Positions 12,320 to 26,117 of a DNA stretch of 64,000 nt are shown here, piece after piece. The position numbers were made by a program, and so were the translations under genes. Position 1 is the first letter of the stretch; each line of letters starts with the position of its first letter. Source of the stretch: Escherichia phage CMSTMSU; sequence record MH494197.1; one strand, written 5' to 3'. The notes below the pieces were generated by a model that saw only the letters and a list, made by a program, of their open reading frames with translations, did not search any database and was not told the DNA's origin.

Positions 12320-13550
12320 TTAGAACATTTGCTTGATTGCTTCAATACGCAATTCAGCAACAAAATCACGAATCTCCGATGTTTGGAGTTCACCATCTTT
12401 CACTAACTGCTGAATATCAGGTAATTCAACATCAGTATAACGATCATAAACTTTAATAATCAAATCTTCAAGTTCAGAATCAATTTCTTTGTTCAAAATG
12501 AAGTTTTCCAGTACTTTGTAAAGGAAATCTTCACCACCATTGTTTTTGATATTCATATCCAGTAAGATTTGTCCCATTTCAACTGGGGTCTTCTTACGGA
12601 AGGTTTTAATATCTTCACGGAAACGCTTGATGTAATTACTAACTTCACGTACTTAACTGGAACCTTAATGGAACCGTTAAGTACTGAATCATTATTACTT
12701 CTTCATTTTCAAAGTACTGTCCATAAGAAATATGGTTTATATTCTTCTGTACAATTTACAGAGATAGAATCAATTAATTCCAGACGTTTCTTGGTAACTG
12801 GAACTGTAGTAAATGCCTTTTCGTAATAACCAAATTGTACCAGAGTTTTGATAAACTTGGAAGGGTTTTCTTCAGAAAGTGCTTTTCGAATTCAACAAAA
12901 CACGATCTGGAACTAGATGGTCTAGTTCACCAGTACTAACCATATCTTTACACATTGTCATAGTATCATCATGGATTGTAAAGTCGGAGAACGCGTAGCG
13001 AAACGGGCCAAACGTAGAACACGCAATGGATCTTCTTTAAAGTGTTCTGATACATGACGAAGTACTTTGTTCTTGATATCAGCTTTCCCGCCATAAGGGT
13101 CGATGTGAATCTGGAGTACTGGATCATATGCAATACTATTGATTGTGAGATCACGACGATATAGATCTTGTTCTAGTGTCACACCTTTTGTATTCACTTC
13201 GAAACCACCATATCCAGTACCAGTTTTACGCTCAGTACGGGCTAATGCGTGTTCATTACCTTCTGGACTTAGATATACAGGAAATCCTTACCTACTTGCT
13301 TGTATCCAATACTTTGCAAGTATTTAATATCGGATTCGGTAGCACCGACAATAACATAATCTTTGTCTTTTGCACGGATGCCCATTAAACGGTCACGAAC
13401 GTAGCCACCAACCAAATACTTTTTCATATCATTCCCCATCAACCAATCACGTAGACGTTCCCAGAAGCCTTTTGGCTGATATTCTGGATATTCATATTCA
13501 TCTGTTCCTTGCTCGGAAACACCCCAATCTTCTTCTAATACTGTAATCAC
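12320..13550 (-). CDS. tRNA nucleotidyltransferase (CCA-adding enzyme), frameshifted
   Basis: [15 protein letters not shown]...KDKDY head-domain motifs in 13269..13550; [13 protein letters not shown] and [11 protein letters not shown] in 12958..13197; C-terminal fragment 12320..12577. Confidence 0.7.
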
Positions 13551-13608
13551 AATGCCTCCAATTAAATTAATCTATCACGTAGACGGTCGTAATATTTTGC
13601 ATGTATAT

Positions 13609-13983
13609 CTAGTATACACTGAAATGACGGATAGTCAATACTAAATGTATCATCAATGAACATGTACTGATCAAGTGTTTCAGGACCATTATCATAAACT
13701 GGCAATGAACCTTCTTTTTTAACAGTGTGTTCCACATCAAATCACATGTAGTATCGAAAATTGCGTATGCTAATTCTATCTTACTTTTTCTAAGTGTAAT
13801 TAATAATTCATCATTCTCTACTAACGCGTTTCGTATTTTTACACGTACTGTACCCTGAAATTTATTAGTGGTTAGTACTCTATATTGATTATACGAAATC
13901 ATGCCTCGTATTTCAGTACTGATTTCTTGTTCAGAAAAGTACCTTAATGTACTGTGGAAATTTGGTATTTTACGAATGTCCAT
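13609..13983 (-). CDS. hypothetical protein, tandem paralog 2
   Basis: Shares N-terminal and, in an alternative frame, C-terminal sequence with adjacent ORF 13970..14380. Confidence 0.3.
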   Translation of the reverse strand: MDIRKIPNFHSTLRYFSEQEISTEIRGMISYNQYRVLTTNKFQGTVRVKIRNALVENDELLITLRKSKIELAYAIFDTTCDLMWNTLLKKKVHCQFMIMVLKHLISTCSLMIHLVLTIRHFSVY

Positions 13984-14380
13984 TCAAATTCCTTTCGTAT
14001 ATATGGTATACGTTCATTATACTATTATATAGTTCAAAGTCAAATCCAAATGTGTCATCAATGAACTGATATTGTAGATACTCTTCATATGAAGCATCAA
14101 TTGGTAATGAGCCAGAACGAATATCATCTGATTTAAAATCGTCAATATATCTTAATGTTATTTCTTCATCAACAGTGATATCTATCATCAACGTATCGTC
14201 ACTGTACCAAAGGTTATGTATACGGATGTAAAGTTTCTTAGCACGATTAAAACTAGATACATTGGTATTGCGATGGAGTTTATCTAAGTTGAAGTAAAAC
14301 CGGCTCGTTTTACTTATGTTTTTCATATGTTCTGCAATCGAATCAATTATATAATCAATGTTGAATGTTCTCATAAACAA
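13970..14380 (-). CDS. hypothetical protein, tandem paralog 1
   Basis: 136 aa ORF; GSLP..D..Y.QYQFIDDTF region similar to neighbour. Confidence 0.3.
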   Translation of the reverse strand: MFMRTFNIDYIIDSIAEHMKNISKTSRFYFNLDKLHRNTNVSSFNRAKKLYIRIHNLWYSDDTLMIDITVDEEITLRYIDDFKSDDIRSGSLPIDASYEEYLQYQFIDDTFGFDFELYNSIMNVYHIYERNLNGHS

Positions 14381-14481
14381 ATCTCATAGCGGTTTGTGTT
14401 TGGATTGTAGCAATAGGTATCATTAATTTTAACACCGGTTTAAGTGTTATTGTTGTTCCTACTTCAGTACTGGGTTCTGCA

Positions 14482-14679
14482 TCACAATAAATCATCACAC
14501 CAACGCCACAGATTAAAGCTAAGATACAAATAATAGCACATATTATATATTCCATCACTCCCCATCAGCCAATCAAAGAGACGTTCCAAGAAGCCATTAG
14601 GCTTGTATTCTGGTTCTTTGTTCACGTCGGTTTCTTGTTCATAAACACCCAAATCTTCTTCAAGTATAATTGTATTCAT
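14482..14679 (-). CDS. small acidic ORF carrying a 40 aa segment duplicated upstream of the CCA-adding enzyme
   Basis: MNTIILEEDLGVYEQETDVNKEPEYKPNGFLERLFDWLMG closely matches [39 protein letters not shown] at 13430..13550. Confidence 0.35.
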   Translation of the reverse strand: MNTIILEEDLGVYEQETDVNKEPEYKPNGFLERLFDWLMGSDGIYNMCYYLYLSFNLWRWCDDLL

Positions 14680-15062
14680 TATATATTATACTCTATTATA
14701 CCATCATCACTTTCACCAGACAACCACTTAATGTAATTTACTTTGTAGAAATTAATCAATGCATAAGTGCTGTACTCAATCAACAAGTGATCTCTCAAGA
14801 ATTCGTCTTGAGCATATCCATCTTCATCCAAATCTGTTGGAATATCAGTTTCTTTGTCTTGAATGTGTAAAGTTATTGTGTCTTTTGTTATACAAATTTT
14901 TATATGATTACAAATAGTAATGATGATTATGCTATATGTTCTATTGAAATATATTGTGAAATCTTCATTAATATTATATCTTCGACTTTCTTCATATTTC
15001 TGATATGGGTCGAAATGTGATAAATTAACTTTAATTAATGTATTTCTCAACTTACACCTCAA
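14679..15062 (-). CDS. hypothetical protein
   Basis: 127 aa ORF. Confidence 0.3.
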   Translation of the reverse strand: MRCKLRNTLIKVNLSHFDPYQKYEESRRYNINEDFTIYFNRTYSIIIITICNHIKICITKDTITLHIQDKETDIPTDLDEDGYAQDEFLRDHLLIEYSTYALINFYKVNYIKWLSGESDDGIIEYNI

Positions 15063-15575
15063 TCATATAAAGTAATTATACATTTTATTGTACAATATAA
15101 AAGGTCTTTCACATTATCATAAGTAATATCAGATATATCATGAATTAATGATAACTGAAAAATGAAGCTTCGTCTATCTCTACTGGGATTATAACATCAT
15201 AGTCTTCGTCAATTTTATGGGTGTAGTATTTTATGTGATCAGCATTCAACACAAGGTTGTATTTTGTATCATCTTCAATTAATCCGACAAATTGAGATTT
15301 TTGATTAATAAAAATCCAATCCCAACACAACGGTTATCTGGATATGGATAGTACCATCTATTAATAACTAGGTGTTCAGGTAAGTCCATATCATGTGTTG
15401 ATATTAAAGATTTTACAATTCCCATCCGAGAATAATTCATAATTAAAACTCCATAAGAAAAGGGACAGAATAATCTCTGTCCCTTTATTATATCTTACTC
15501 TTCGTCTTCAGTCAAGTCTTCTTGAACTGGATGTTCGGGTGTTACGGCGATGCAATTTGATGCTTTTGTCTTTAC

Positions 15576-15824
15576 CTAAGACAGTTTCCATTTTTCAAAT
15601 GAATCACCAATTGCTTTGTATAAATCTGCATCATCGGCGGTGACAATCTTACCACCTGATGTTAAAGTTACGGAATATTGATTCTTATGCTCTTTCTTCA
15701 CATGAACACCGATATAAAGTACTGAAGAATCACTAAATTTCGTTAGTACATTTGCTTCTGCATGAATCGCGTCATTGATTGCTGGAGTAATATCAACATT
15801 ACCTTGGATAACTAAATCTAGCAT
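15576..15824 (-). CDS. putative ribosome hibernation promoting factor (HPF/RaiA-like)
   Basis: MLDLVIQGNVDITPAINDAIHAEANVLTKF...VTLTSGGKIVTADDADLYKAIGDS follows the HPF pattern (L.ITG.N.EIT.AL...V..K..KL ... GG.I.A...DMY.AID). Confidence 0.4.
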   Translation of the reverse strand: MLDLVIQGNVDITPAINDAIHAEANVLTKFSDSSVLYIGVHVKKEHKNQYSVTLTSGGKIVTADDADLYKAIGDSFEKWKLS

Positions 15825-15839
15825 AATTTACCTACCTTT

Positions 15840-16457
15840 TTAGAGTGAGCTTAACAGCAAATCCGCTCTGTTTGTAACTTGGCGATACCACAAGGAATTC
15901 ATGATTTCTTTCTTGAACTTCTTAGGGTTATCCATTTTAACACTTTTCCAAAGTTTGTCAAATGTTGCCAACTTATCAACGCCCATTGTGTATGACATTT
16001 CAAACAGGATACGCTGCTGTTCTTTTGTCAGATTAACTGCATCTTTCTTCTGCATCAATAGTGTAAAGTCCTCGTAAGTCCTTTTCATATCTTGCATTAA
16101 AAGTTTGTTGGCCTGTGCTTTGGTAATCCCGTTTCTGTACTTCATTGCATCAGAATCTTTCTTACCCAAATAATGCCCATAACCAATTGTATAATTACCT
16201 TTCATGTCCTTATAGGGATGAAATTTAGAATTGTGGAAAGGAACTCCAACTTTCCCACCAAGTAATTTACGTTTGTTCTTGGACTGAAATTCAATAGAAC
16301 CTTCAGCTTCTTTGATGTGATCGACAATTTCTGGATCTTTATAATCAAACAGTACAGTCACATCTGGTAACAATACGTTCTTCAAATCCTCTTTTGTTGG
16401 GATAAAGATACCCTGAGAAGTATGAAGAGTTGCATTTAAGTTGATATTCTTCAACAA
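15840..16457 (-). CDS. T4-type lysozyme (glycoside hydrolase family 24) with about 100 aa N-terminal extension
   Basis: TIGYGHYL and SLWYRQVTNRADLL match T4 lysozyme TIGIGHLL and SRWYNQTPNRAKRV. Confidence 0.8.
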   Translation of the reverse strand: MLKNINLNATLHTSQGIFIPTKEDLKNVLLPDVTVLFDYKDPEIVDHIKEAEGSIEFQSKNKRKLLGGKVGVPFHNSKFHPYKDMKGNYTIGYGHYLGKKDSDAMKYRNGITKAQANKLLMQDMKRTYEDFTLLMQKKDAVNLTKEQQRILFEMSYTMGVDKLATFDKLWKSVKMDNPKKFKKEIMNSLWYRQVTNRADLLLSSL

Positions 16458-16517
16458 AATGACATAATCTTCAATCTGTACATTTTAGGTTTAAATTTCT
16501 GTGCAATAGAATAATAA

Positions 16518-16718
16518 CTATCTCGGTTGAACCGTATAATGTTTCTCGCTGCTTGGAACTGCCTTTGGTACTGATACCTTTAGTAGTTCCTGCTTTTGAA
16601 TTTGTACAACTTGTGGTTTTAAATTATGCACCTGACTTTCGTCTAATGATGATGCACGATCACTTTGAGAAAAACCATAAAATCCAATCGCAGCGAATAG
16701 GGCTGATGAAACTAACAC
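16518..16718 (-). CDS. small membrane protein upstream of lysozyme (holin or signal-anchor candidate)
   Basis: N-terminal hydrophobic stretch LVSSALFAAIGFYGF; position next to lysozyme. Confidence 0.25.
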   Translation of the reverse strand: MLVSSALFAAIGFYGFSQSDRASSLDESQVHNLKPQVVQIQKQELLKVSVPKAVPSSEKHYTVQPR

Positions 16719-16928
16719 GCCTATGGCAATTTTAGTTTTCAGTGCTTTTTCGCTTTTTCAAAACGCCTCCTTTGTTGGTTGTTAACAATGAGCAATCACA
16801 AAGAGGGCAAAGAGGCCATTTGCAAAAGCCTCATTGGACTTTCTACAGTACTCATTTGTTCTTTGGAACATTTAAGTAGTATAGCATACTTTTTAGTTAT
16901 ATCAAGACCTATTTACCAAATAACCACA

Positions 16929-17320
16929 TTAATCGTAGTATGTTCTACCAATGGTGATGTGATATTTGAAATATTTAGATGCCAAACCCAGTTCATTACG
17001 AATATGTGCAATGAAATCATCTTCAAACTCTATGATAAAGAATGACCGTTTCTTATTGTCTTTTACTTCTTCGATGAAAGGATCGAACTTAATCTTAACT
17101 TTCATACCATCGTACTTTTTCCAGTACTCTGGATTTGGTGGCACTTCACCACGAACGATACTGACATGTGCTCCCCATTGTGGGTCTTTAATATCAATAT
17201 GTAAGTCAGTTCTGATGAAGTACTGGTAGTATCGAACCAACTGTAATGGAAGTTGCAGTACTAACCAGAAGTCCTTCTTCTTTTCATAGTGCCACGATCT
17301 GGATCATACACCAGAGTTCC
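16929..17320 (-). CDS. putative 2H phosphoesterase (LigT/Acb1-like)
   Basis: Two H-x-[ST]-x motifs (HVSIV and HITIG) about 80 aa apart in a protein of about 130 aa. Confidence 0.35.
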
Positions 17321-17692
17321 TTCCATTTCAATCATATTTTACCTATAAATTTACATATATATTTTTATTTTCAATACGAACATAAGTTTCTAAAACATCT
17401 TTCGGAATTTTATTACTTGTTTTGTACCATGTAGTATTATCTACTAAAACAAAAGTTTCACCTTCAGTTTCACCAAATGTACTTAGTGCATAAATGAAGT
17501 AGTTTGGTGATGCACTACAATAAACATCAGCATTAATTTCAATCATATTTTACACCACAATAAAGCTTAATACAACGAGTGTAATAAACACACCCACAAT
17601 GGCGGTCATTTCAGGGTTAGCATCGTATGTATAACGGATGCACTTTAGAAAATCTTTACCAAACTTTTTTAGTCCATTCATATATTTTCCTT

Positions 17693-18049
17693 TCATTTCT
17701 TGTGTAAAGGGTCGGCACTTTCATAATAGATTGTATCATTGTTTCGCTCAATAGTAAAACTCTTTTGACACAACTCTTCAGCTAAACCCTTAGCATAGTT
17801 TAATACATCTCGGTTGAGATATACTTCTTCTTTTGGGAAGCGTGGGTACTGAATAATACGAGCACACATTCCACTTTCAAGACCACCCGTGTAGATGTAT
17901 TCACACGGAATCAATTGTACACAAAATCCAAGCTTGAATGCAAACTTTCGTGTGTACTCTCTTGCTGTTTGGATATCACCAGCAATATGAATATTCCAGT
18001 ACTGTGTTTCAACTGTACCTTTGTCGATGTATTTCATACTCATCTCCAA
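17693..18049 (-). CDS. hypothetical protein
   Basis: 118 aa ORF. Confidence 0.3.
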   Translation of the reverse strand: MEMSMKYIDKGTVETQYWNIHIAGDIQTAREYTRKFAFKLGFCVQLIPCEYIYTGGLESGMCARIIQYPRFPKEEVYLNRDVLNYAKGLAEELCQKSFTIERNNDTIYYESADPLHKK

Positions 18050-18435
18050 TTATAGCATAAAAATCCTACTTGCCCAAATCTTCTATAATTCTTTTATGAT
18101 ATCATTGTTTTCCAGACATAAAGTACTGAAATTTCTACCTGTTTTTTCATTGAGTTCATTAATCTCAAGCATAAGATAACCATAAGTGATATCTTGAACC
18201 CTACTTCGTTTTACCCTTGAGTACAGTCTGATGGGTACAGATACGCGAGTATTCAAAAGAATTCTGATAAATCATAACGATATACGGTATTCATTCTTGT
18301 AACGTTTACGACTGTACGATTCTAAACACTGTGGGAAACGTCTATCAAACATACTACTTCTTAGTTGAAGTATGATTGATCTAACTTATGCGAGAAATAC
18401 TTTTGATTATTTTATTAAATCTTGTTACATGTCGT

Positions 18436-18891
18436 TTACGCCATCTCATAATCAAACCTTAAAAATATAATAGGAAAGTATTTTGTTTCCGAATCTGAAA
18501 TACTGTTACAGTAATCTTTCAATTCATCATGGATAACATTCAAATGAATAGTAGGATAGTTCATAGGTTTCTGTACTGGGCCAGTGGCATATACGCAATC
18601 TGTTCTATCCCAACTTACATATTGGGTTGGGTAATTATCTTTAGTACGTTCTTCAATAATAATATTATATTCTGGTGTATTGAATACATACATATCACAT
18701 TGTGAAATGTACTGAACATTAAAATCACCATCAGTTAGATGGATCATGTTCCCATCGCAATATAAGCATGATGGTTCAGTGTATCCTAAAATTGAAGATA
18801 AAGTTCTGAAGTTTGCTCGACCCAAATATACCAAATTCGTGTGTAAACAAATATCAATGAAACGTTTGAAGACTTCAGTTTCGTTATGCAT
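18436..18891 (-). CDS. hypothetical protein
   Basis: 151 aa ORF. Confidence 0.3.
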   Translation of the reverse strand: MHNETEVFKRFIDICLHTNLVYLGRANFRTLSSILGYTEPSCLYCDGNMIHLTDGDFNVQYISQCDMYVFNTPEYNIIIEERTKDNYPTQYVSWDRTDCVYATGPVQKPMNYPTIHLNVIHDELKDYCNSISDSETKYFPIIFLRFDYEMA

Positions 18892-19074
18892 ATAGATACC
18901 TTAAAAAGACCCCACATAGTGAGGTCAAACACTTTTAAACGTTATCATCATCCAAAGCTTCACGGTAAACATAATAAACATGCGTACCTAGAAGAACAAT
19001 GAGTACAATGAATACTAACCAGAATGGTACAAAATGCAGTACAAGTGCAAATGCCATTACGGTAATAACCATCA

Positions 19075-19731
19075 CTACTGAACTAAAAATAAGACTAGTC
19101 GCTTTTTAAATCCAGATAGTACATCATTCAAAACGCGTTTCATAAATGAATCAACCATTTTATTCCTCATATAATCCATATAGCAAGTTCTGCATAGACT
19201 CTTGTATGATTCATCACCACCAATAAAGACTTTATCAGTACTTTCAACTATACGGGCATTCATAGTGGCTTCTTTGCCACACTTCTGATTCTCACACACG
19301 TTCTTAAGTTCATGTATGTCATCAGCTATTTCGAACAGTCTTTGTGAACCTTCAAAAGATTGGATTCAAAATCTGTTCGTATTCCATAACAGGAAACATC
19401 AACACCATAATTATCTGCTATATCAGCTAAATGGTCAATTTGTTCTCTGTTTAAAATTGACATTCATCAACATAGATACTGTTAATGTCAACGTCATTTT
19501 TGAGTGTTTCTTTAACTTTAAGAAGAACACTAATGTCATTTTTGGAATTACTTCAGCCACAGCTTCGATGCCAATTCTTGAAGTAATCTTTCCTGTTCCA
19601 TAACGATCATCAAGTGCACTGGTTAAGTAAATTACCTTCATTCCATTTTTCTTATGGTTATATGCTTTTTGTAAAAGATGAGTACTTTTACCACTAGACA
19701 TACTACCATAGTAATATACTAATTTACCCAT
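19075..19731 (-). CDS. tk: thymidine kinase (frameshifted into two fragments)
   Basis: MGKLVYYYGSMSSGKSTHLLQ P-loop, YLTSALDDRYG, and C-terminal zinc motif CRTCY in 19075..19299. Confidence 0.85.
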
Positions 19732-20170
19732 TTTAATCCTTAAGTACGTGTGCTTACATTTTAATCTATTACCATAGGATGAAATTGGGATATTGAACAT
19801 TTCTATTTTACCCTCTTTTAAAAGACGTAAAATATCTGGATCGTTTTGGTTTGTACACAATGAAGACCATTGACTTGAATTTCTAAACCATTCTTCAGAA
19901 ATTCATAAATCTTCTGTCTACGCTTCCCACCGAAACTTTCATTTCGGATAACATCTCTTAGGTCTTTATATTCTTGTTTTAATTTCCTGTCAAAAGTGTT
20001 CCATCTTTCTTTCTGATTTCTTCAATACACTTATATTGAGTTTGTCCTCTAAGAGCCATATTTGACCTCGTTGGGATATTTCTTCATTAACTCATGTAAA
20101 CGTTGAATTTCCTGATTTTTCTTATGTTCTTCATCATACTTCTTAGAAAGATTCTTTCTTGTATTTGTTT

Positions 20171-20527
20171 CTAATAATCTAAAATTAGTACAGAATCTAT
20201 CATTTTAGCAACGTTCTTACGTAACGCATCAAAAACAGTACTGAAATAGTTATCCAATGGAAAAGAAGTATCAGTGTAATTATAAAAATCCATTACATTT
20301 GTCATGTTCACATGTTCAATTACCGCACCATTGTGCGTTACAATAAACATTATATCACCATAATTACAATTTGCATCAGTACGGTACAGATATAAATGAT
20401 CACGTAAATAATCTTTTAATTTATGTTCAATACCACTTTGTTCAGTACTTTGAAATACCAAAACTTCACCATAGATTGTATTACCTTCATAATCATTTGG
20501 TTCGCGGATAATTGTAAGGTTATACAT
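20171..20527 (-). CDS. hypothetical protein
   Basis: 118 aa ORF. Confidence 0.3.
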   Translation of the reverse strand: MYNLTIIREPNDYEGNTIYGEVLVFQSTEQSGIEHKLKDYLRDHLYLYRTDANCNYGDIMFIVTHNGAVIEHVNMTNVMDFYNYTDTSFPLDNYFSTVFDALRKNVAKMIDSVLILDY

Positions 20528-20535
20528 ATAACTCC

Positions 20536-20826
20536 TTATACCGGAGATACGGTACTCAGCATTAGTAGAGCAGTGTTTTCATCAATTTCATGTTGATTGT
20601 CGCACACTAGTGTTTCCAATAGGTCTGGATTGTAATAATAATGTTCATAATCTGTATCATTTGGAATATGGTGATAGGTGAATACAATGTCAAATACATC
20701 ATCATCATTTTCACTTTTGAAACGCTTTAATTCTTCTACACTTTCAACAAAACCATACTCTTCAAAAGCAGTAGTACCATCAGTAAGTTTCATCCATGCA
20801 CTTGCGACAATTTTCATAAATTTCAA
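20536..20826 (-). CDS. hypothetical protein
   Basis: 96 aa ORF. Confidence 0.3.
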   Translation of the reverse strand: MKFMKIVASAWMKLTDGTTAFEEYGFVESVEELKRFKSENDDDVFDIVFTYHHIPNDTDYEHYYYNPDLLETLVCDNQHEIDENTALLMLSTVSPV

Positions 20827-21097
20827 ATCCTTATTCTTTTGTAATGTTTAGTTTAGAAACGAAATGGTTTTTGCTTCTTCAAATGTCATTGAAGTATATA
20901 CTGGGTTCCAATTATCGTCAAGATCTGTAAGTACTTTAACTTCCATTACATCTTCAGGTGTGTAGAATTGCCATGTGTTATGATCTGGTTCATAATTAGG
21001 GTCTAGTGTGAAAACTGTTCCATTCTGACCATAAACTTGTCCATCCTCTAATAGCTCACGAAATAAGTCTTCCCCAGTTGTTGGGTCTTCGTATGCA

Positions 21098-21415
21098 TTA
21101 TAAAAGGAAAACAACATTCTCAACATCAGTTCGGGTAGTACCATCGTCTTCATCATATTCAACCAAACGGTCCTGATGAAATACTAGGTCAATAGCACCA
21201 ATGCGAGGTTTATTATGTGGAGTTTTGATTTCTTGCTGGGAATTGTAATCCATACGTTCAGTACTGATGAATACACCACTTGGTGTGATTTCAATACCAG
21301 ATACATTTTCTGGTGAATAATAAGAGTCACACATATCATCAATATGCATGTGCTCATGATACACTTCCATTTCAGGGTTCTGCATCAACAGTGCTGCTAG
21401 GTCTTTTGCTTTCAA
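21098..21415 (-). CDS. hypothetical protein, paralog of 22380..22805
   Basis: MKAKDLAALLMQNPEMEVYHEH...ITPSGVFIS vs MKSHDLAKLLLSQPNLDIYHYD...VTPSGIFTT. Confidence 0.35.
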   Translation of the reverse strand: MKAKDLAALLMQNPEMEVYHEHMHIDDMCDSYYSPENVSGIEITPSGVFISTERMDYNSQQEIKTPHNKPRIGAIDLVFHQDRLVEYDEDDGTTRTDVENVVFLL

Positions 21416-23248: not shown

Positions 23249-23424
23249 AAATCTCTCCTTAGAGTTATTCTATGGTATTTAGTTAATAATAAAGGTAACT
23301 TCAGGATTCATTTCTGAAACTGCATTTCTCTTACTTCTATTCCATAGTACTCTATTGTTATATAATGAAGAATCACAAATTATAAGTAAGCAATTCCTTA
23401 ATCTACTTACAGTACTTTGATTAC

Positions 23425-23706
23425 TTAAATCAGTTTCTGTAACAAAAATACATTATCAGGAACTTCTACAGGAATTGATTTATCAAAGAAGAAAACTACA
23501 ATAGGTCTGTTTGTATGAACTAAATTAATAAAGTCTAAAATACTGTTATAAAATTCAGTTCCTTTGTTTAAACTTAATGGATCTTTGATTCTCTTCAAAT
23601 AGGTCTGAACCAAATTATGATCGCTTTTGATTTGATACTCAAAATATTCTTTGAATAACATTTGTGTTAATTCAGATGTATTGGATATTTTCGTTGTGTT
23701 ACTCAT
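23425..23706 (-). CDS. hypothetical protein
   Basis: 93 aa ORF. Confidence 0.3.
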   Translation of the reverse strand: MSNTTKISNTSELTQMLFKEYFEYQIKSDHNLVQTYLKRIKDPLSLNKGTEFYNSILDFINLVHTNRPIVVFFFDKSIPVEVPDNVFLLQKLI

Positions 23707-23709
23707 TCA

Positions 23710-24555
23710 CTTCGTTCTCTCGTAACTCAAGAAGTCACTACGTTTACTTCGTAAACTAGTTCCTTCTGAAAATGATAATGTACTTTAAAAGCTTGACGGG
23801 ATTTGTTGAGGACTATTTCATCCCGCAGGAATGAAGGTAATAAAAAGAGACAATTAAGTCTCTCTTGACGATGATGGCATCGGATATTATCGAATTGAAT
23901 TTCTCAAATTTTGGACGGATCTTTCCTGTACCAAAATTTAGAGAGCGAAAGCGGGTTGCTCGGTTTCTCTCTATCGCAGTCATATGCAACGGTCGCTGGT
24001 CTTTTCATCAACAGCACTCAGTACTAAACTCTATTCGATCAAAGTAGTACCTGTTCTCAAATTTTGGACGCAACTTTCTTGTAAAATCGCGTCCACAATC
24101 CTTGAACTCCCTTAGCAAATTCGTAAGGTGCGAACCTTATACATCTATCTAGGAACTCTCTGTGTGCTTATTGGAGTTCTTTATACAGCCGTGTCGCCGT
24201 GATTCGTGGTCTTATCTCGTGTTTGTTTGATTGCCAGTACTCTAACAGGTTTCTTTTGCTGTTCGCTACAACGGTAAAGCTCATCTATCCTTTACATTTT
24301 CAAGAGAAGTAGGTTCTCATTATCCATTTTTCAATGTCCGTTGTCATTTTACAATATACATTATATCACTAGGATGTATTATGTCCCGTTACATGTATAC
24401 CTTTTTCAAATCCTTGGAACAACGGTCAAAATTGTGTTGATGAATTCGACATCCTCTTTGATATTGGAGTCTATAGCATCATTCTCGTTTCTTGTTGTGT
24501 TCCTGTATTTGTGTTCAGGGTGATTGTATACCACCTTGACTACATTATTTAGGTC
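23710..24555. other. ORF-poor, GC-richer island with direct repeat and hairpins; candidate structured ncRNA or regulatory region
   Basis: No minus-strand ORF over about 850 bp in an otherwise tightly packed region; 16-nt direct repeat tctcaaattttggacg twice about 160 bp apart; several stem-loops including a GNRA-type hairpin. Confidence 0.3.
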
Positions 24556-24784
24556 TACAAAAATGACGATTTTTGCGTATAGGAAGCCTGAAGCTTGATG
24601 AGTTTACCATCGTTTTGTAGATTAGTCTTGTGAATTAGTTCTTCAATACCATCTAAATGGCTATAGCTATCCTGTTCTTTGACGAATGTAACAGTTACCA
24701 GTACTGACTTCTCATCTCCAAAGTCAGAGATATTTTTAACAGCACTGATGATTTCTAAGTTTGAAAAATCTAATTCTTTTAGCA

Positions 24785-25111
24785 TTACAAATATTTCCAC
24801 AAAGTTCGATAAGTGATAATTTCTTCTCTGGTAACAGAAACTTCATAGCACTTAACACCATCAGTTTCATTTCTGAATGGTTCTGCTGGTCTATCTTCTG
24901 TTAAACCTCGTTCATACGTACAATGATAATATTTGTTCGTGTTCATGTCAAGAAAAACTAGATCAAATTCTTCTGTCCATCGTCTATGCCCTTTACTTTC
25001 ATTACTAATGATTTTGTACTTAACATCGGGATTGAATGATTCAGTACTGTCATCCCATGTACCATAGTCAGTATATTCATCATCTTCATCTAACTCTGCC
25101 AGATGCCACAT
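24785..25111 (-). CDS. hypothetical protein
   Basis: 108 aa ORF. Confidence 0.3.
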   Translation of the reverse strand: MWHLAELDEDDEYTDYGTWDDSTESFNPDVKYKIISNESKGHRRWTEEFDLVFLDMNTNKYYHCTYERGLTEDRPAEPFRNETDGVKCYEVSVTREEIITYRTLWKYL

Positions 25112-25180: not shown

Positions 25181-25246
25181 TATCATAACATATTAATTGT
25201 GATTATTCAATTTCTTTTGTTCTTTTTAGAGCTTTCATATGTCGTC

Positions 25247-25800
25247 CAAAATCACGAACATGCCATATATGGTCGGTTTCCCATAGTTCTGTACGTAAAC
25301 GGCGTTCTTCCAATTCTTCTGGAGTAGGAATTTTAGATTTCTTCTTATCTTTATTGAAAAAATCATTCATATGTTCTTCCAGTAGATTTCTACCCTTAAC
25401 TTTTTCCGGAATTCATCTACTGATTCAGTTTTATTAGAACGAAGACTGTTACAACGTGAACACATGGTGTTGTAATTTGACTCTAAATCAGGTCCACCCT
25501 TAGATGCTAGTTGGTTATGATCTACTGTCATCAGTACTTCATATAGACCACAAACTGCATAGACATTTAAGTGAGGTTTACCATATACCGGATCAGTGCT
25601 ATGTGAACGCTCAATGCGAACTTCAGTGGCTTCAATACCACACGCAACGCATTTACAATTCTTAACGAATGTAAGTACTTTTGTGGGAAGTATCGGAAAG
25701 TAACACCGTTATATGTATAGCGTTTCATCTGTGTACTTCTTTGATTTAACTCATCAAGAAGTGATAGTTTGGCAACATAGTAGACCTGATATTTTGACAT
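25247..25800 (-). mobile_element. HNH endonuclease gene (frameshifted)
   Basis: Hand translation gives VDHNQLASKGGPDLESNYNTMCSRCNS, matching the HNH D-H...GG...N...C..CN pattern, preceded by CxxC. Confidence 0.5.
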
Positions 25801-25802
25801 TT

Positions 25803-26117
25803 TTAATCCTCGGATTTAATTTTAACCTTAACATCTTGATTTTGTAAATCACGAATAGTTTTAATTAATGCATCATGTTTTAGTGCACAGTCATTGTACA
25901 TTGCATCCCATTTTACGAGTACTGCAAGAATTTCAGCACCATCATATCCTCTGAACCCGTTTTTATCGACCATGATTTTACTTGGTAGTGGTGTATTTTC
26001 GTCACAACGTTCAAGTAAGATTTCTTGTTCTACAATTGGTTTAGGTTGATACTTAATTTCTTCAGCACAACCACTAATTAATAGAAAAGAAATTGCAAAT
26101 ACTAAAGCGTATTTCAT
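25803..26117 (-). CDS. putative outer-membrane spanin (lipoprotein)
   Basis: Signal peptide with lipobox LISGC; start overlaps stop of upstream ORF. Confidence 0.45.
   Translation of the reverse strand: MKYALVFAISFLLISGCAEEIKYQPKPIVEQEILLERCDENTPLPSKIMVDKNGFRGYDGAEILAVLVKWDAMYNDCALKHDALIKTIRDLQNQDVKVKIKSED

Follow-up and report, generated by a model that had tools for sequence, protein, structure and literature searches.

The gap and its flanking genes

The stretch of DNA analysed here (the window) comprises 64,000 nucleotides of the genome of Escherichia phage CMSTMSU (sequence record MH494197.1). Among genes that are otherwise packed end to end, an earlier sequence-only reading had singled out about 850 bp (positions 23710-24555) as free of any substantial minus-strand open reading frame (ORF), richer in G+C than its flanks and furnished with a direct repeat and several hairpins, and had suggested structured small RNAs, an origin or regulatory region, or the remnant of a mobile ribozyme. 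Our analyses indicate that the gap at this locus is probably a free-standing gene on the minus strand, whose product is a large and elaborately structured non-coding RNA (ncRNA). That this RNA represents an apparently undescribed class of large structured RNA is well supported, and literature searches on jumbo phages, RaK2, ncRNA and structured RNA yielded no description of it.

Over positions 23300-25000 the window shares 99.4% identity with Escherichia phages EC.P1, Ecwhy_1 and fEgEco12, 94% with phage 121Q and ~90% with PBECO4-type phages, and its close relatives are Asteriusvirus jumbo myoviruses of ~350 kb. The gap lies between homologues of the 121Q genes for gp515 and gp517 (Table 1). 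Positions 24388-24555 proved to be the 3' part of the gp515-type (DUF7325) gene, which is intact in the relatives, so that ~170 bp of the supposedly ORF-free span belong to a broken neighbour gene and the genuine gap covers ~23708-24387, or ~690 bp in relatives, not 850 bp. The lack of substantial minus-strand ORFs was borne out, the longest in the span having 58 amino acids (aa), as was the raised G+C content, which is 0.40-0.43 at 23700-24300 versus 0.26-0.30 immediately to the left and ~0.33-0.36 to the right (window mean ~0.35).

Compared with eight 99%-identical relatives, the indels of the window are all deletions, mostly in homopolymer runs, which were placed by aligning it with two relatives (Table 1). 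We treated these as assembly errors because all relatives have the longer version and because otherwise intact genes are broken by them. A homologue of an HNH endonuclease at ~25196-25807 is split in the window into ORFs at 25203-25370, 25367-25531 and 25567-25800. The assembly is probably in need of polishing, which should be borne in mind wherever else the window looks gene-free or fragmented.

Since frameshifting deletions, mostly in homopolymer runs, do exist in the window, we weighed whether the gap is a pseudogene or a coding gene obscured by errors in the sequence. However, more than 30 independent, error-free relatives have no conserved reading frame there (their longest ORFs, of 28-97 aa, vary in strand and position), and substitutions track base pairs, not codons. 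The sequence-only reading had allowed that a corrected sequence might restore genes; it does so only at the edges, and the central 690 bp stay non-coding in all relatives, which leaves a hidden gene a negligible probability. Small "hypothetical protein" coding sequences (CDSs) of 23-62 aa have been annotated over the RNA gene (WPEC5 CDS0465-0468, 121Q gp516, fHe-Yen9-04 g347/g348; see also Table 1). They are almost certainly spurious, and annotations of the locus, which consist of spurious small ORFs or are blank, should be corrected.

Transfer RNAs (tRNAs), of which the sequence-only reading had seen no canonical T-loops, are lacking: ARAGORN found no tRNA or transfer-messenger RNA gene in the whole 64 kb. 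Rfam 15 gave no match at gathering score or at E<=10 in the window, nor at E<=5 in nine divergent homologues, and such chance matches as occurred in the window, in these homologues and in the gap of the bacterial island described below all lay outside the RNA element. A second copy of the RNA was not found within the window.

Fold, predicted transcription signals and probable strand of the RNA

The fold was built on 32 distinct homologues, a set enlarged with viral and metagenomic contigs, in which 86 pairs were curated in 14 helices. Standard pairs filled 93.6% of the cells, versus 78.3% after column shuffling and 38.7-42.7% when partners were slid by 1-3 columns. The pairs that changed on both sides numbered 53 of 86 (37.2 in the shuffles, 16-22 with slid partners), and the covariation score was 0.424, versus 0.156 for the shuffles, none of 500 of which reached it, and 0.05-0.08 for slid partners. 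Independently of this pair counting, RNAalifold found the curated helices; from 16 sequences it predicted 91 pairs, of which 27 show compensatory double changes, and joined distant parts. On its minus strand the error-free homologue has a folding z of -4.24, which none of 100 shuffles equalled, and the structure thus exceeds chance. These data show that at least 14 helices and two pseudoknots are kept by compensatory substitutions across at least four phage genera. Folding with covariation from related phages had been proposed as a check on the region, and it did find covarying helices across the homologues.

Table 1. Positions of the RNA gene's features, its neighbours, the deletions and related loci (window coordinates unless another sequence is named; -, minus strand).
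Feature	Position	Strand	Remarks
-35-like hexamer GGGACA	24382..24387	-	16 bp upstream of the -10; TGGACA in error-free relatives, one base differing in the window
Putative extended -10, TGATATAAT	24360..24368	-	predicted start ~24352-24355 (about 24353)
RNA body (predicted)	23842..24353	-	~512 nt in the window, ~519 nt in error-free relatives
P1, variable 5' hairpin	24321..24340	-	7 pairs, 5 with at least 2 Watson-Crick pair types
P2 hairpin	24285..24312	-	GAAAAYG loop; 7/8 pairs change both sides
P3 hairpin	24265..24280	-	3/4 pairs change both sides
P4 enclosing P5	24185..24262	-	P4, 24258-24262 with 24185-24189; P5, 24241-24248 with 24197-24202, plus variable extension
PK2, three-pair tertiary helix	24141..24194	-	24192-24194 with 24141-24143
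P6 hairpin	24153..24179	-	6/6 pairs change both sides
Hairpin UAAGGU-UCGC-ACCUUA	24124..24139	-	conserved stem
Near-invariant block GCUAAGGGAG	24107..24116	-	UAAGGGA invariant; outside modelled helices
P7 with hairpin module copy 1	24054..24107	-	24104-24107 with 24054-24057; 4/4 pairs change both sides
P8 hairpin	24021..24050	-	loop 24033-24039 forms PK1; 9/10 pairs change both sides
P9 hairpin	23992..24017	-	one pair U-G in 25, C-G in 7, which fits minus only
Conserved core	23896..23978	-	P10, 23974-23978 with 23896-23898; GAGAG/CUUUC, 23967-23971 with 23947-23951; invariant GAGCAACCCGCUU; P11, 23941-23945 with 23901-23905
Hairpin module copy 2, atop P11	23901..23930	-	first repeat copy; homologous module in GAP32- and Munch-type copies
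PK1, 3' strand AUUCGAU	23889..23895	-	pairs with 24033-24039; 99.5% of cells paired, 4/7 pairs change both sides
P12 hairpin (GAUG...CGUC)	23867..23881	-	internal pair U-G in 16, C-G in 12, minus only
T1, intrinsic-terminator-like hairpin and U-run	23842..23862	-	GAGAC-UUAAUU-GUCUC (23847-23862), then U-run (23842-23846), U5 in the window, U6-7 in relatives
T2, G+C-rich hairpin downstream of T1	23817..23835	-	97% of cells paired; one pair U-G in 30, C-G in 2
Conserved tail GUCCUCAACAAAUCCCGUCAAG	23792..23813	-	near-invariant columns; kept in the E. coli island copy
Downstream gene, homologue of 121Q gp517	23279..23707	-	142 aa in relatives; PHROG 35272, unknown function; frameshifted in the window
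Upstream gene, homologue of 121Q gp515	24388..24785	-	DUF7325, 132 aa in relatives
Deletion	~23444		A-run; frameshifts the gp517 homologue
Deletion, 5 nt	~23827		C/G-run; shortens T2
Deletion	~23847		A-run
Deletion, 2 nt (GC)	~23897		3' strand of P10 shortened
Deletions	~24428 and ~24559		A-runs; gp515 homologue frameshifted twice
Small CDSs overlying the RNA gene	L002 3429-3994; L001 3582-3737; L010 1580-1732		public annotations of relatives
Copy in 121Q	192.8 kb		between gp415 and gp416
Copy in 121Q	247.5 kb		counterpart of the window locus
Copy in 121Q	326.7 kb		between endonuclease VII and gp595/baseplate hub
E. coli island, ~10.7 kb	L096 (LR-29-1, NZ_AP027515.1) 10900-21300; L097 (EEC_W5) 7900-18300		between ffs and ybaA

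Helices P4 and P5 have 100% and 98.9% of their cells paired; Munch-type copies have lost the variable extension on the P5 side, where only a short CCGY/RCGG hairpin is left to them. The three pairs of PK2 are C-G in 5 and U-A in 27 sequences, A-U in 13 and G-C in 19, and A-U in 32, with 0 exceptions among the 32 sequences. PK1, which spans ~140-145 nt, comes in four variants (CGAAU/AUUCG, UGUAU/AUACA, CAUAU/AUAUG and CUGAUA/UAUCAG). At least eight different stem sequences were seen in P8, with an internal U-G in 31 of 32, and its alignment register differs by one column between paralogue types. The core helix GAGAG/CUUUC becomes GCGAG/CUUGC in the homologues L077 and L074, a compensatory change. 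A hairpin taaggt-gcga-acctta had been described as having a GNRA loop; the hairpin is there, but its loop is UCGC on the RNA, which is read from the minus strand. Variants of its UAAGG/CCUUA stem are UGAGG/CCUUA, which gives G-U on the minus and C-A on the plus strand, and UGAG/CUCA in other lineages.

The 16-nt direct repeat, TCTCAAATTTTGGACG, is present exactly twice as described, at 23902-23917 and 24055-24070, with no other site in the 64 kb at up to three mismatches, and a different stem follows each copy. The spacing is 153 nt, not ~160, and the repeat is longer than had been stated, at 30 nt with 90% identity (23901-23930 and 24054-24083). The two copies are the 3' halves of two hairpin modules with the consensus UACAnGAAAGnUnCGUCCAAAAUUUGAGAA: module copy 1, on P7, contains the second repeat copy and is present or absent by lineage, and module copy 2 stands on P11. 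GAP32-type RNAs have the module on P11 only, B- and C-type paralogues on P7 only, and Asteriusvirus A copies on both. What was seen as a direct repeat is thus a structural module duplicated within one RNA, where it is seated on two helices, and not an iteron or regulatory site.

Roughly a dozen invariant or near-invariant blocks stand between the helices, among them CGACCGUUGC, GAUAGAGAGAAAC, GAGCAACCCGCUU, GCUAAGGGAG, CACGGC and GAUGAG. The family signature consists of CGACCGUUGC and GAGCAACCCGCUU, which are invariant, and GCUAAGGGAG and GAUAGAGAGAAAC, which are almost so, together with P2-P12, PK1 and PK2; the GCUAAGGGAG block is presumably a junction or core block. The window copy has all of the signature blocks and helices, save for the 2-nt deletion in P10 and the 5-nt deletion in T2. 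Peripheral hairpins vary in length or are absent in some lineages. By analogy with other RNAs, an invariant core with long-range helices and a variable periphery is the usual architecture of those that act through their fold.

The earlier suggestion of structured small RNAs was right as to structure but not as to number, the region specifying a single RNA of ~510 nt with long-range helices and pseudoknots. A patchwork of independent terminators, promoters, leader hairpins and small RNAs serving the neighbours would fit the terminator-like hairpin and the promoter in the region, over which annotations of relatives scatter small features or ORFs. It is very unlikely, however, given that the covarying long-range helices P4, P10 and PK1 join parts up to ~145 nt apart and that the whole unit recurs together at loci with unrelated neighbours and in a bacterial island.

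Putative transcription signals on the minus strand bound the RNA. The best sigma-70 match lies at the same edge and on that strand in three different copies, with a TATAAT-like hexamer that is usually preceded by TG: TGGACA-16-TATAAT in WPEC5 copy A (11/12 with TG, the best match in the region), GAGACA-16-TATAAT in 121Q copy B and ATGAAA-18-TATAAT in GAP32. Of the alignment rows long enough to cover this edge, nearly all have a TATAAT-like hexamer, either in register or a few bases further upstream, as does the Escherichia coli island copy. At the other edge, four of the six pairs of T1 change on both sides and U-G occurs in 7 sequences, and a terminator scan gave matches on the minus strand in 121Q copy B and GAP32. 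A sigma-70 unit, with a -35/extended -10 upstream and a hairpin plus U-run downstream on one strand, is thus predicted in three copies. The positions of promoter and terminator are kept across the three paralogue types. Judged by these predicted signals, the gene is an autonomous transcription unit; it does not depend on particular neighbours.

Beyond the RNA unit, and ahead of the start codon of the following gene, a further hairpin region occupies 23719-23790. In other copies this region forms a long stem that GAAUU...AAUUC closes and CGAAAAUUCUU follows, and its position is conserved in all copy types; conceivable roles are those of a second terminator, of a 3' stabiliser and of a leader. 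Many copies also have a TATAAAT- or TAAAAG-like motif just past the tail (23791-23800 and homologous positions). This motif resembles the T4-type late promoter that was reported for phages CBB and GAP32 (PMC5259590) and might drive late transcription of the downstream gene.

Promoter, terminator and wobble pairs together make it very likely that the RNA strand is the minus strand of the window. Internal wobble positions alternate between U-G and C-G (pairs 441/452, 468/490, 618/629 and 681/695, with U-G:C-G counts of 31:1, 25:7, 16:12 and 30:2), which favours the minus strand because the plus strand would have A-C mismatches at these positions. Among pairs picked only for at least two Watson-Crick types, G-U cells number 49-62 and A-C cells 18-23 (~2.7:1 for minus). 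On the minus-strand reading, a core-helix G-U pair found in all 32 sequences adjoins a compensatory change.

The same structured RNA might be made from the plus strand instead, where it would be antisense to the flanking genes here. The plus strand also folds well (z = -3.24), the RNAalifold energies of the two strands are nearly equal (-160.0 vs -157.5), and GAP32-type copies fold ~10 kcal/mol better on the plus strand; the first plus-strand fold used several invariant or near-invariant G-U pairs, and in context B the plus orientation has the same direction as the neighbour genes. By contrast, the three copies have neither a conserved promoter upstream nor a U-run afterwards on that strand, and both the excess of minus-strand wobbles in helices chosen for Watson-Crick covariation only and the U-G/C-G alternation speak against it. 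Since the plus strand is U-rich, its folding energy is inflated by chance G-U pairs. We consider a plus-strand RNA unlikely and read the gene from the minus strand in what follows.

Copies in jumbo phages and in an Escherichia coli island

The gap is 94.7% identical in PBECO4-type phages, versus 89.7% for a 1.7-kb stretch that includes the flanking genes. At 65-70% identity, blastn detects it in Cronobacter phage GAP32, Pectobacterium phage CBB, Yersinia phage fHe-Yen9-04, Serratia phage BF, Erwinia phages and the Salmonella phages 7t3 and Munch, and in Klebsiella phages RaK2 and K64-1 it detects the invariant core only. The phage records that match the gap, 71 in number, are all RaK2-like jumbo phages, and each 121Q-, PBECO4-, GAP32- or RaK2-type genome searched has several copies. 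In 121Q an invariant 16-mer retrieves three loci, and a profile search confirms three full-length copies (Table 1) that are diverged and lie at unrelated loci on the same genome strand. Neighbour genes differ among the three loci and among genera, and the flanking proteins are of unknown function except for endonuclease VII. In several phages of other genera the best match is in an ORF-free gap between the baseplate-hub and endonuclease VII genes. The clustering of copy types common to several genera indicates that the duplications predate the split of the genera, and the fact that the paralogues have been kept apart across genera argues for divided labour.

Scans of metagenomes and species genomes yielded 29 new loci, 25 of which are true members of the family, and those with enough context are jumbo-phage contigs. 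The most divergent member, on a 2.5-kb metagenome contig (L068; JACCDR010487790.1, 1040-1720), retains the core, a TGCTACAAT promoter and, in new sequence versions, the two pseudoknots; it is without P12 and T1, and its G+C hairpin is followed by UUUU. A scan of 100,044 species genomes with a strict two-anchor pattern gave two matches, neither of which was confirmed by the family profile, and the family was not found in plasmids.

Among 5426 complete E. coli genomes, two carry the RNA, namely LR-29-1 (Ecuador, human) and EEC_W5 (Bangladesh, poultry water), in an island at the same chromosomal site (Table 1). The island copy is a full-length family member (nhmmer E = 5e-140) with its own TGTGATATAAT promoter, terminator, G+C hairpin and tail. 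Canonical pairs are formed at 74 of the 85 curated positions, with 14 double changes relative to the phage copy, and most of the remaining pairs fall in the P8 stem, where the alignment register varies by copy type. Its closest relative is copy C of Serratia phage BF (80% identity). The RNA sits in a 1.4-kb ORF-free gap of the island, in which IS3 splits the gene for a tyrosine integrase. Also encoded there are a DNA invertase, a trio (DuOB, DUF488 and SLOG-DUF4326) that matches the PADLOC candidate defence system PDC-M45, and several proteins of unknown function. In PADLOC, the protein downstream of the RNA had no match and the one upstream a weak match to PDC-M01B. Four island proteins tested had no homologue in these jumbo phages, and the remainder of the ORF-free gap had no match in phages or Rfam, from which we conclude that a bare promoter-RNA-terminator module moved between a jumbo phage and the bacterial island. 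The presence of the module alone in the island also indicates that the unit is autonomous.

The ORF-free stretch of the island also holds, ~300 nt downstream of the RNA, a palindrome (AACGATCGTT / TATCGATCGTT) in three clustered copies (L096 15850-15990). These palindromes may be an operator or other protein-binding site.

Several dispersed copies, all on one genome strand, each with a strong host-type promoter predicted ahead of a long non-coding transcript, might be expected of replication origins with a priming transcript, like T4 origins or ColE1 RNA II. The three copies would be three origins, and the island would be copied by the phage, satellites often copying cis-sites of a helper; a G-run/C-run hairpin after the transcript and the carriage of the module by a host island fit this proposal, and the T4 origin oriE lies beside gene 5, as copy B lies beside the baseplate-hub gene. 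An origin was also among the proposals of the sequence-only reading. However, the GC skew shows no inflection at the locus (weak evidence in T4-like phages), the region is G+C-richer than its flanks and has neither iterons nor an A+T-rich unwinding element, and the island is without replication or packaging genes. Origins of the T4 type call for a promoter plus an unwinding element but have no need of 14 covarying helices or two pseudoknots, and the conservation seen here is of the compensatory base-pair kind. An origin therefore seems improbable, about as much so as an RNA from the plus strand.

The remaining proposal of the sequence-only reading, the remnant of a mobile ribozyme, can be extended to a free-standing relative of one (group I/II intron or homing-endonuclease-associated RNA). 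A conserved core with pseudoknots and a variable periphery of hairpins would fit such an RNA, as would the movement of the module from one genome to another and the HNH genes that occur near the RNA. However, no Rfam intron, ribozyme or omega-RNA model matched the window or the nine divergent homologues (no family of any kind at E = 10), and in relatives the RNA gene lies between complete genes, interrupts none and is without exon-like flanks. In 121Q, no HNH homing-endonuclease gene adjoins copy B or copy C; the neighbour of copy B is the conserved endonuclease VII gene, which has a weak HNH-family match. Free-standing homing endonucleases commonly adjoin any highly conserved sequence. We find a ribozyme remnant hardly probable.

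An HNH homing-endonuclease gene lies directly beside the RNA gene in the metagenomic phage contig L074 (5647-6186) and, in the lineage of the window, two genes away from it. Free-standing homing endonucleases may use the invariant RNA gene as a landing site.

Proposed action and comparison with known RNAs

Several observations weigh against the reading of the gap as a minus-strand gene for a large structured RNA. Watson-Crick covariation is symmetric between the strands, whole-molecule folding energy does not separate them, and a few positions favour the plus strand (one terminal pair that is C-A in 9 sequences and the B-type P5 extension GGTGG/CCATC). The T1 hairpin is absent from 121Q copy C and from L068, and ~50 nt past the proposed terminator, comprising T2 and the tail, are conserved like the core, which may place the mature 3' end beyond that terminator or give read-through transcripts a part. 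Where transcription begins and ends, and that the RNA is expressed at all, are predictions. The window copy has three deletions inside the RNA, which are probably sequencing errors but could mean a damaged copy. Lastly, the bacterial occurrence is a single island lineage, which leaves selection on the RNA within bacteria conjectural.

With these points taken into account, we still favour the minus-strand RNA gene, and propose that the RNA would be made by the host RNA polymerase, probably from early in infection. The conserved core in its folded form would let it work in trans, be it as a particle of RNA only, as a ribonucleoprotein (RNP) scaffold or as a catalyst, and neither through linear antisense pairing nor as a cis element for its neighbours. 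A fold rather than an antisense seed is suggested by the conserved bases being outside helices, in a pseudoknotted fold. We lean, with some reserve, towards a trans-acting RNA of the same kind as ROOL and GOLLD, dependent on its fold. The presence of the module in a host island beside candidate defence genes suggests a role in phage-host conflict, which is a tentative idea and on balance doubtful. More speculative still, and rather unlikely, is a scheme of cooperation among the three ancient paralogues, for instance within a hetero-oligomeric particle (RNA-only or RNP) or a ribozyme of three specificities. They would serve the infection cycle or counter-defence, and the defence island would use a captured copy as a decoy or poison subunit against the phage.

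The RNA is found in jumbo phages of E. coli, Salmonella, Klebsiella, Cronobacter, Erwinia and Yersinia (121Q, PBECO4, phAPEC6, GAP32 and RaK2), several of which are in development for therapy. Since the phages and their hosts can be cultivated, the RNA is open to genetics, RNA-seq and cryo-EM straight away. That the bare module has jumped into a host island, with candidate defence genes close by, suggests an arms race at the RNA level.

Among known systems, a precedent for an ncRNA common to a host defence locus and phages is given by ToxI and pseudo-ToxI, to which the E. coli island copy is a parallel. ToxI, however, consists of tandem 36-nt repeats directly upstream of a toxin gene, whereas the RNA described here has two 30-nt copies 153 nt apart in a 510-nt fold, and no ToxN-like gene adjoins it, its neighbours being the DUF7325 and PHROG 35272 genes. 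ColE1 RNA II and the T4 origin transcripts are likewise long, promoter-driven and non-coding; RNA II has ~550 nt, and its folding matters for its function. The covarying tertiary structure seen here far exceeds what those primers need. RNase P RNA and group I introns offer an architectural analogy only, having an invariant core outside helices, long-range helices with pseudoknots and a dispensable periphery, but none of their signature sequences or Rfam models match the RNA. The jumbo phage PA5oct, a distant relative of the RaK2 group, also has long non-coding transcripts in ORF-free gaps, where RNA-seq defined the long ncRNAs ncRNA001-004, two of them highly expressed (PMC7318152). A search of its ncRNA001, 002 and 004 with the family profile (nhmmer) gave nothing better than E = 10.

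Large RNAs with such dense conserved tertiary structure are rare; historically they have been ribozymes and RNP cores, and recently self-assembling RNA cages (ROOL and GOLLD). GOLLD is also a large, ornate RNA of phages and prophages with a conserved and a variable domain, but it is often longer than 800 nt, it often embeds or adjoins tRNAs, and its Rfam model does not match the RNA described here. ROOL has a size of ~500-600 nt. The RNA described here is similarly large (~510 nt), ornate (at least 14 helices and two pseudoknots), phage-encoded and provided with its own putative transcription signals. In contrast to ROOL, which is usually near tRNA islands, it has no tRNA within 64 kb; its phage range is confined to RaK2-like jumbo phages of Enterobacteria, with three diverged paralogues per genome; and it does not match the Rfam ROOL model. 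Membership in either class fails, as neither covariance model matches and there is no association with tRNAs. ROOL is encoded by phages and prophages, with an ornate multi-pseudoknot fold, its own transcription signals and no known protein partner or function (10.1101/2024.12.08.627333). It self-assembles into a homo-oligomeric, RNA-only nanocage. By analogy of size, fold and setting, ROOL and GOLLD are the nearest known things in kind to the RNA of these jumbo phages.

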